Source: Escherichia coli 042 (GTDB taxonomy: Bacteria; Pseudomonadota; Gammaproteobacteria; Enterobacterales; Enterobacteriaceae). Taken from it: a DNA stretch of 64,000 nt. Position numbers: made by a program. Below, in pieces: positions 53,101 through 53,544 of the stretch. The DNA lies in assembly GCF_000027125.1 (NCBI RefSeq), contig NC_017626.1. The stretch is one strand, 5' to 3'. The first letter of the stretch is position 1, and each line of letters begins with the position of its first letter.

Positions 53101-53544
53101 ACGACGCGAGCAGCTCAATAACGCTGCCAGTTCGTTGAGTGTTGTGTCCTGCGATTTACCCTCGCAGCATTGCCACAGGCGGATGAACTGTTGTTGCAGA
53201 CGAGCAGATGGCATAAAAGGGGAACTCCTGCGCAAAAGACAGCAATTTTATTTTCCCTATATTAAGTCAATAATTCCTAACGATGAAGCAAGGAGGTGCC
53301 CCATGCGTCAGTTTTATCAGCACTATTTTACCGAGACAGCGAAGTTGTGCTGGTTGCGTTGGTTAAGCGTCCCACAACGATTAACCATGCTTGAAGAACT
53401 GATGCAGTGGGAGGGGAGTCATTCTGACTACTGATTTGCGGACATCATGTGTGACTGAGTATTGGTGTTAATCGCCACGCCAGCAGTGATTATCTGCTGG
53501 CTTTTTTCTTTTTGGCGATTGAGTACCGGACGGTGTACAAACTA

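Follow-up and report, generated by a model that had tools for sequence, protein, structure and literature searches.

The sgrS locus of Escherichia coli 042 raises the question whether the small reading frame sgrT, which lies within the RNA and ends differently from its counterpart in E. coli K-12, still specifies a working peptide, and whether this difference has anything to do with the absence of setA from the locus. Both points had been brought up in an initial annotation of the stretch of 64,000 nucleotides that was analysed here (the window). The SgrS model of Rfam is matched over its entire length (positions 1-232 of 232) with 223.3 bits against a gathering score of 37 (E = 7e-64), and the RNA is divergent from the adjoining sgrR gene, which is annotated as such in the locally identical locus of O145 RM9872. 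The SgrS of K-12 MG1655 (b4577/b4662) is alike in length (227 nt, with 43 sgrT codons) and in having sgrR as neighbour, but unlike in the presence of setA downstream, in its T8 tract and in the sequences of the terminator loop and the small hairpin. In the window setA does not follow the sgrS terminator: leuD lies 33 nt after the SgrS 3' end, and a tblastn search of the window with K-12 SetA as query gave zero matches. The features of the region are collected in Table 1.

Table 1. Features of the sgrR-sgrS-leuD region, in window coordinates.
Feature	Position	Strand	Basis or comparison
sgrR, transcriptional activator	51556-53214	-	ORF; tblastn 97% to K-12 SgrR
SgrS, dual-function small RNA, full length	53282-53508	+	Rfam RF00534
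sgrT Shine-Dalgarno AAGGAGG	53290-53296	+	sequence comparison, local fold
sgrT, 43 codons and TGA stop, ATG start intact	53303-53434	+
Codon 11, GAG (Glu)	53333-53335	+	Ala in nearly all homologues; rare sub-allele
Codon 32, GAA (Glu)	53396-53398	+	family consensus; Gly of K-12 is the derived state
Divergent tail, codons 37-43, EGSHSDY	53411-53431	+	DDRNSES in K-12
Spacer between stop codon and seed, 8 nt	53435-53442	+	comparison with K-12
Conserved base-pairing (seed) block, 26 nt	53443-53468	+	identical to K-12
Small hairpin UGGUG-UUAAU-CGCCA	53463-53477	+	GGUG-UAAAAU-CACC in K-12; hairpin kept
Rho-independent terminator, 8-bp stem GCCAGCAG/CUGCUGGC, 7-nt loop, T6-C-T5	53479-53513	+	fold
setA-less junction, SgrS terminator to leuD stop codon	53509-53541		junction intact in 2141 E. 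coli genomes
leuD, convergent with sgrS	53542-54147	-	ORF

The sgrT frame has its own Shine-Dalgarno sequence and start codon in the 5' part of SgrS, and its translation reads MRQFYQHYFTETAKLCWLRWLSVPQRLTMLEELMQWEGSHSDY without interruption up to the stop codon, which confirms the intact frame that had been reported. The K-12 MG1655 frame (locus L001:4389-4520) translates to MRQFYQHYFTATAKLCWLRWLSVPQRLTMLEGLMQWDDRNSES, and the two peptides are not identical: 8 of the 43 residues differ (A11E, G32E, D37E, D38G, R39S, N40H, E42D and S43Y), six of them among the last seven. The C-terminal third of the peptide had been described as divergent from K-12; the divergence is real, but its extent is the last seven residues plus G32E. 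Glu at position 32 also occurs together with the K-12-type tail, in the SgrT of the Escherichia sp. MOD1-EC7003 type. The peptide matches the SgrT family PF15894 of Pfam over residues 3-37 with 46.8 bits against a gathering cutoff of 27, as compared to 49.6 bits for K-12 SgrT, and RefSeq lists the same protein as WP_001248774.1, 'glucose uptake inhibitor SgrT'. In an NCBIfam search no SgrT model was matched by either the window or the K-12 allele.

Where the peptide is constrained becomes clear from an alignment of 29 SgrT sequences of Enterobacteriaceae (Escherichia, Citrobacter, Salmonella, Klebsiella, Raoultella, Enterobacter, Siccibacter and Superficieibacter). Ten positions are invariant (F4, Y8, F9, T12, W17, L18, L30, L33, Q35 and W36) and all ten are retained in the window; of the near-invariant positions A11 and M34, the window keeps M34 and has Glu at position 11. 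Beyond W36 the alignment contains zero conserved columns, and the length of the tail varies from 1 to 25 residues, the SgrT of C. sedlakii being a peptide of 37 amino acids that ends one residue past W36. Conservation ends exactly at codon 36-37 because the coding sequence for ...LEELMQW forms the 3' arm of a long helix, which pairs with the sgrT start region in both the Rfam alignment and the predicted fold. The tail lies outside the Pfam match, which stops at residue 37, and SgrT carrying C-terminal 3xHA and GFP fusions served in assays of PtsG interaction and localisation (Kosfeld & Jahreis, PMC3901232). From the absent conservation in the family, the Pfam limit, the C-terminal fusions and the boundary of the RNA helix, it follows that the tail is most likely functionally neutral. 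An AlphaFold model calculated on the SgrT alignment predicts helices 2-13 and 17-39 with an end of low confidence, which is weak evidence as the peptide is small. Given the conserved core and the reported cross-species complementation (PMC2760817, PMC4021124), SgrT with the window tail should be active against PtsG.

The base-pairing part of SgrS is unaltered. The seed sequence gtgtgactgagtattggtg, which had been quoted as conserved, is found at positions 53449-53467, inside a block of 26 nt that is identical to K-12 and invariant in sequence across Escherichia, Salmonella and Citrobacter. In the predicted fold a 5'-3' closing helix is followed by the single-stranded seed and two 3' hairpins; the seed block is unpaired through 53462 and its last few bases make up the 5' arm of the small hairpin. 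Both this hairpin and the 8-bp terminator stem are predicted to form in the window as well as in K-12, and the overall predicted architecture of the two RNAs is alike. Both sequence types of the small hairpin are found in several genera. A column-wise covariation test of this hairpin would mislead, the registers of the two types being shifted by one base, and individual folds were used instead. The U tract of the terminator consists of 6 U, C and 5 U in the window, as compared to T8 in K-12. For E. coli Hfq-dependent sRNAs 'seven or more T' has been noted (PMC5558911), a length that the 6 U of the window do not reach, and long U tails matter for Hfq binding of K-12 SgrS (PMC5558911, PMC4509938). 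T6-C is the commonest tract among SgrS homologues of many genera, with T8 of K-12 as the outlier, and for this reason the tract is not read as a sign of a defective Hfq module. The K-12 sgrS terminator allows a readthrough of roughly 50%, by which setA is co-transcribed with sgrS (PMC4509938); readthrough at a locus that lacks setA would presumably enter the 3' end of leuD in antisense orientation.

Differences from K-12 are unevenly distributed over the RNA. Counted from the SgrS 5' end, the stretch up to sgrT codon 36 has only 3 differences in 129 nt (97.7% identity), codons 37-43 with the stop contain 10 differences in 24 nt, the spacer 4 in 8, the seed block 0 in 26, and the small hairpin plus terminator 13 in 40. 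The clustering (3/129 in the 5' part against 27/72 in the 3' part outside the seed; Fisher p = 3.5e-11) is not due to chance. Beyond the terminator there is no relation between the sequences, setA following in K-12 and leuD in the window. The peaks of divergence between the window and K-12 adjoin indels, one being the sgrS 3' region and the other the sgrR 3' end beside an espY2 insertion. At unconstrained 3' positions the two haplotypes described below differ by 30-50%, whereas the setA-less loci of different Escherichia species are only a few percent apart. Simple clock-like divergence does not account for such a pattern, and the 3' divergence requires great age or import from another genus.

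A comparison of sgrS/sgrT alleles across E. coli strains had been proposed, and was carried out on 5426 complete genomes, 5399 of which contain the sgrS region. These fall into exactly two sgrS 3' haplotypes. A query of the window type, spanning tail, terminator and leuD junction, identified 2157 genomes (2141 across the whole junction), and one of the K-12 type, spanning tail, terminator and start of setA, identified the other 3242 (3239 across the junction). The K-12 class is near-uniform, 3240 of the 3242 genomes being at least 99% identical, and the window class is more diverse. The window-type haplotype is an ordinary allele that is present in about 40% of E. coli genomes. The initial annotation had further suggested that sgrT variation might track with the absence of setA, and it does: leuD directly follows, with setA missing, in 2141 of the 2157 window-type genomes, and setA is present in 3239 of the 3242 K-12-type genomes, although this is linkage and not coupling, as argued below. 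The sampled exceptions are secondary events. In strain SCU-176 an IS200C element is inserted between sgrS and leuD, and strain HH97 has a K-12-type sgrT with setA deleted to a remnant of 63 nt. The HH97 locus (NZ_CP116409.1, positions 2626-2913 of L055) represents a separate, secondary event by which a K-12-type haplotype lost most of setA. A further K-12-type sgrS, that of the urinary isolate EBJ001 (NZ_CP086336.1, L054 at ~2700-2720), has lost 15 nt comprising TGCCTGCATCATGTG, which takes away the spacer and, of the conserved seed block, the 5' part, and its SgrS is probably impaired in base pairing. Among the papers searched there was none that links the presence of setA to the sgrT allele or to phylogroup.

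The window allele as such is already described, having been reported in 2009 as the SgrS of strains CFT073 and O157:H7, with 88% identity to that of K-12 (Horler & Vanderpool 2009, NAR 37:5465, PMC2760817); of these two, O157:H7 has an sgrT whose start codon is mutated (PMC2760817). CFT073 and O157:H7 Sakai resemble the window in the sgrS 3' haplotype, the EGSHSDY tail and the GGAGG leader that lacks the K-12 hairpin. PMV-1, Ecol_AZ146 and other strains have ...FTATAK...ELMQWEGSHSDY (WP_001248768.1), and this common window-type protein differs from the window protein at residue 11 alone. Unlike the CFT073/O157:H7 type, the window thus has A11E, and its ATG start stands where O157:H7 has ATT. 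The additions made here are modest, namely figures for the near-complete linkage to the setA deletion, the signature that recombination has left in the setA block, and A11E as a rare substitution of a near-invariant residue.

Taken together, we consider it probable that E. coli 042 carries a common non-K-12 sgrR-sgrS/sgrT haplotype with a rare A11E substitution, and that this most likely encodes a working dual-function SgrS. SgrR-activated transcription would yield the Hfq-dependent small RNA, whose unchanged seed would repress ptsG and manXYZ, and the translated 5' part would supply SgrT, inhibitor of the glucose transporter PtsG. The tail would differ as it falls in the least constrained stretch, between the conserved ...ELMQW core and the seed, and forms part of a haplotype block, old and strongly diverged, together with the 3' hairpin module and the presence or absence of setA. 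The tail appears to follow setA in E. coli because linkage between the two blocks is almost complete.

In the sgrT leader, a G-to-A change at 53294 converts the K-12 inverted repeat GGGGGTGCCCC into GGAGGTGCCCC, and the calculated stability of the local leader fold is -6.2 kcal/mol in the window as compared to -11.9 kcal/mol in K-12. With GGAGG in the leader in place of GGGGG, the hairpin by which the ribosome-binding site (RBS) is blocked in K-12 is missing. This inverted repeat or hairpin inhibits sgrT translation in K-12 (PMC2760806), and no more than 3 of 15 E. coli strains had such a stem-loop (Horler & Vanderpool 2009, PMC2760817). GGAGG was found in every sampled window-type genome; K-12 and EBJ001 have GGGGG, which HH97 lacks. 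Since the hairpin is removed and a canonical Shine-Dalgarno sequence created, the window allele should make more SgrT than K-12. Approximately 1490 of the sgrS-containing genomes gave no seed for the 60-mer query with the ATT start, as is expected for an ATG plus GGGGG leader, which suggests, as an indirect estimate, that the RBS-occluding hairpin occurs in roughly a quarter of E. coli genomes. The exact 60-mer of the O157:H7-type leader with ATT start is present in 312 genomes. RefSeq/PGAP annotates sgrT with an ATT start in O157:H7 (loci L051 and L056, positions 304-435), and this product shares accession WP_001248768.1 with the ATG strains, while in the literature SgrT is considered lost.

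Position 11 is Ala in 27 of the 29 aligned sequences, the exceptions being the window (Glu) and one Citrobacter (Thr), and the exact 60-mer with A11E was found in 39 of 5398 E. coli genomes, mostly O145:H28 with scattered animal and human isolates. These isolates all have one and the same protein and the setA-less haplotype. In the Rfam SgrS model the underlying C-to-A change opens the base pair that closes one of the internal hairpins. As a charged residue at a near-invariant alanine, Glu11 could have weakened the sub-allele. The sequence that had been quoted initially contained A11E without remark, and the Shine-Dalgarno change was likewise overlooked; the tail to which attention was drawn is different indeed, but these two are the more function-relevant differences. 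Apart from A11E, sgrT in the window is well preserved and probably better translated than in K-12. Over 20 kb (44000-64000) the window is 100.0% identical to E. coli Res13-Sevr-PER07-33 from pig faeces in Canada. The O145:H28 strains are exactly identical in the sgrS region and yet missing from the best matches over 20 kb, which shows the A11E segment to be common to different backgrounds.

It may be asked whether the tail, A11E and the ATT start are steps in a decay of SgrT under relaxed selection, with the RNA function kept. We hold this to be quite improbable. A11E does affect a near-invariant residue and is rare (39 genomes), the ATT start occurs in 312 genomes (PMC2760817), and base pairing alone suffices for stress rescue in K-12 (PMC2760806, PMC4021124); indeed, because the O157:H7 allele has lost its start codon, SgrT can be dispensable in a window-type background. 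However, the 43-codon frame, the position of the stop and the ten invariant residues are kept in the window type, and all of these are also retained at species-level divergence in the setA-less Escherichia loci introduced below. The Shine-Dalgarno sequence is a canonical AGGAGG that is free of the K-12 inhibitory hairpin, and the tail difference, common to all 2157 genomes, is much older than A11E and ATT.

The origin of the linkage to setA was addressed by scanning one genome per species with a seed pattern, which gave 44 enterobacterial loci. The gene setA is situated directly 3' of sgrS in Citrobacter, Salmonella, Klebsiella, Raoultella, Enterobacter, Siccibacter, Superficieibacter and Pluralibacter. 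Because setA follows sgrS in these eight other genera, the arrangement with setA is, by sequence comparison, the ancestral one in Enterobacteriaceae. E. albertii, E. whittamii, Escherichia sp. E1V33 and L013, a locus that bears the label E. coli but differs by ~7% from the window as well as from K-12, are devoid of setA and have the same junction sequence as the window; the shared junction points to one deletion event, the polarity within the genus resting on the Escherichia lineages that the scan identified, with zero loci under the names E. fergusonii, E. marmotae and E. ruysiae. That single deletion with its single junction would mark the setA-less haplotype throughout Escherichia. Each setA-less Escherichia locus has a tail of the type EGS(H/D)(S/F)(D/E)Y, and the setA-containing loci of the genus, including that of Escherichia sp. 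MOD1-EC7003, have the tail DDRNSES.

K-12 SetA shares 87-89% identity with its Citrobacter and Salmonella homologs, which resembles the values for SgrR (84-88%) and LeuD (88-92%) and argues that it was not recently imported from these genera. Within Escherichia the block has been mobile. Loci of the MOD1-EC7003 type diverge from K-12 by only 1-2% between sgrT and the end of setA, as compared to ~6% in thiB, sgrR, leuC and leuB; the low inner and higher flanking divergence indicates that the setA-bearing block moved between Escherichia lineages by homologous recombination. The tract measures ~1.4 kb in the comparison of these loci (L063-L066) with K-12 (L050:17389-18789).

In the Citrobacter freundii complex (C. 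werkmanii, C. youngae and C. portucalensis) a 3' module TAATCGCC(G/A)CGCCAGCAG...CTGCTGGCTTTTTTC is found that is almost identical to that of the window, with ~3 differences in 40 nt; unlike the window, these bacteria have kept setA and possess an SgrT of 40 amino acids ending in EVTA. Both types of 3' hairpin module have near-identical Citrobacter counterparts with setA present in all, the TAATCGCC type in the C. freundii complex and the AAAATCACCC type in Citrobacter sp. FP75, the latter also in several other genera. Since both types occur with setA outside E. coli, the module type is not functionally tied to the loss of setA. These observations bear on a functional co-adaptation in which the tail of SgrT was altered because setA was lost, strains devoid of the SetA efflux pump requiring a changed action of SgrT on PtsG that the tail would specify. 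Such an adaptation would explain why tail type and setA state are paired near-perfectly in 5399 E. coli genomes and in the Escherichia species, and it could appeal to the co-transcription of setA with sgrS in K-12, as part of the same stress response (PMC4509938, PMC4021124). We nevertheless regard it as very improbable, as the tail is free of constraint throughout the family and nearly missing from C. sedlakii, homologs with unrelated tails work in K-12, and the noncoding spacer and hairpin loops diverge equally, as is expected for a linked block and not for selection on the protein. Moreover, Citrobacter combines a window-type module with setA, and HH97 a K-12-type sgrT with its absence. The association of the sgrT tail with setA in E. 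coli is therefore a historical haplotype linkage and not a functional coupling, and the linkage is presumably neutral. An artefact or private cluster of mutations, due to errors in sequencing or assembly or to a hypermutated patch peculiar to the strain, would account for the local clustering of the differences and nothing more, and is hardly conceivable in view of a region of 306 nt that is 100% identical in O145 RM9872, the identical 20-kb surroundings in Res13-Sevr-PER07-33, and the recurrence of the 3' haplotype in 2157 complete genomes and four other Escherichia lineages.

Beyond the preferred reading of a common, probably functional haplotype, a broader proposal is that the two haplotypes are an ancient presence/absence polymorphism that is kept by selection, passed on by recombination, and reflects two strategies against glucose-phosphate stress. 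We consider this rather unlikely. If true, the K-12 type would combine SetA efflux with an SgrT whose translation is poor in many strains, the window type would lack SetA and have an SgrT with an unobstructed AGGAGG ribosome-binding site, and some Shiga-toxin-producing lineages of the window type would have weakened SgrT independently (ATT in O157:H7; A11E in O145:H28 and relatives). The linkage and the recombination signature form a tidy example of an indel-anchored haplotype rather than a new mechanism. Nearly all mechanistic work on SgrS, SgrT and SetA used K-12, whose haplotype (setA, T8 and K-12's own RBS-occluding hairpin) makes up ~60% of sequenced E. coli and is less typical for the genus. 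This matters when SgrT dosage, readthrough or the role of SetA is extrapolated to B2/D/E pathogens, in which setA is lacking, the 3' module is different, and ATT or A11E is present in sub-lineages.

An extension of the divergent block into leuD was considered. Over the last ~300 nt of leuD the window and K-12 differ by 5.6-7.5%, as compared to 1.6% further in, but a B2 strain of the same haplotype is about equally divergent there and the extension was dropped. As the 3' end of the gene is hypervariable even within the setA-less class, leuD cannot bound the block cleanly. This part (53542-53840) is unusually variable among E. coli and other Escherichia, with 5-9% divergence between two setA-less E. 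coli as compared to ~1.6% in the 5' half. The C-terminal residue of LeuD is Arg in the window and in the outgroups, and Asn in K-12.

On the other side of the locus, an ORF of 189 amino acids (50758-51327, + strand), which is annotated as the T3SS effector EspY2 in O145 RM9872 and is absent from K-12, is inserted between the thiB TPP riboswitch (50417-50516) and sgrR, within a stretch that does not align to K-12 (50552-51561). The adjacent sgrR 3' end (51600-52200) is 8-15% divergent from K-12 and constitutes the second indel-anchored peak. Further upstream, near thiQ/yabI, positions 47000-47199 contain 45 mismatches to K-12 in 200 nt, in surroundings that are ~2% divergent.
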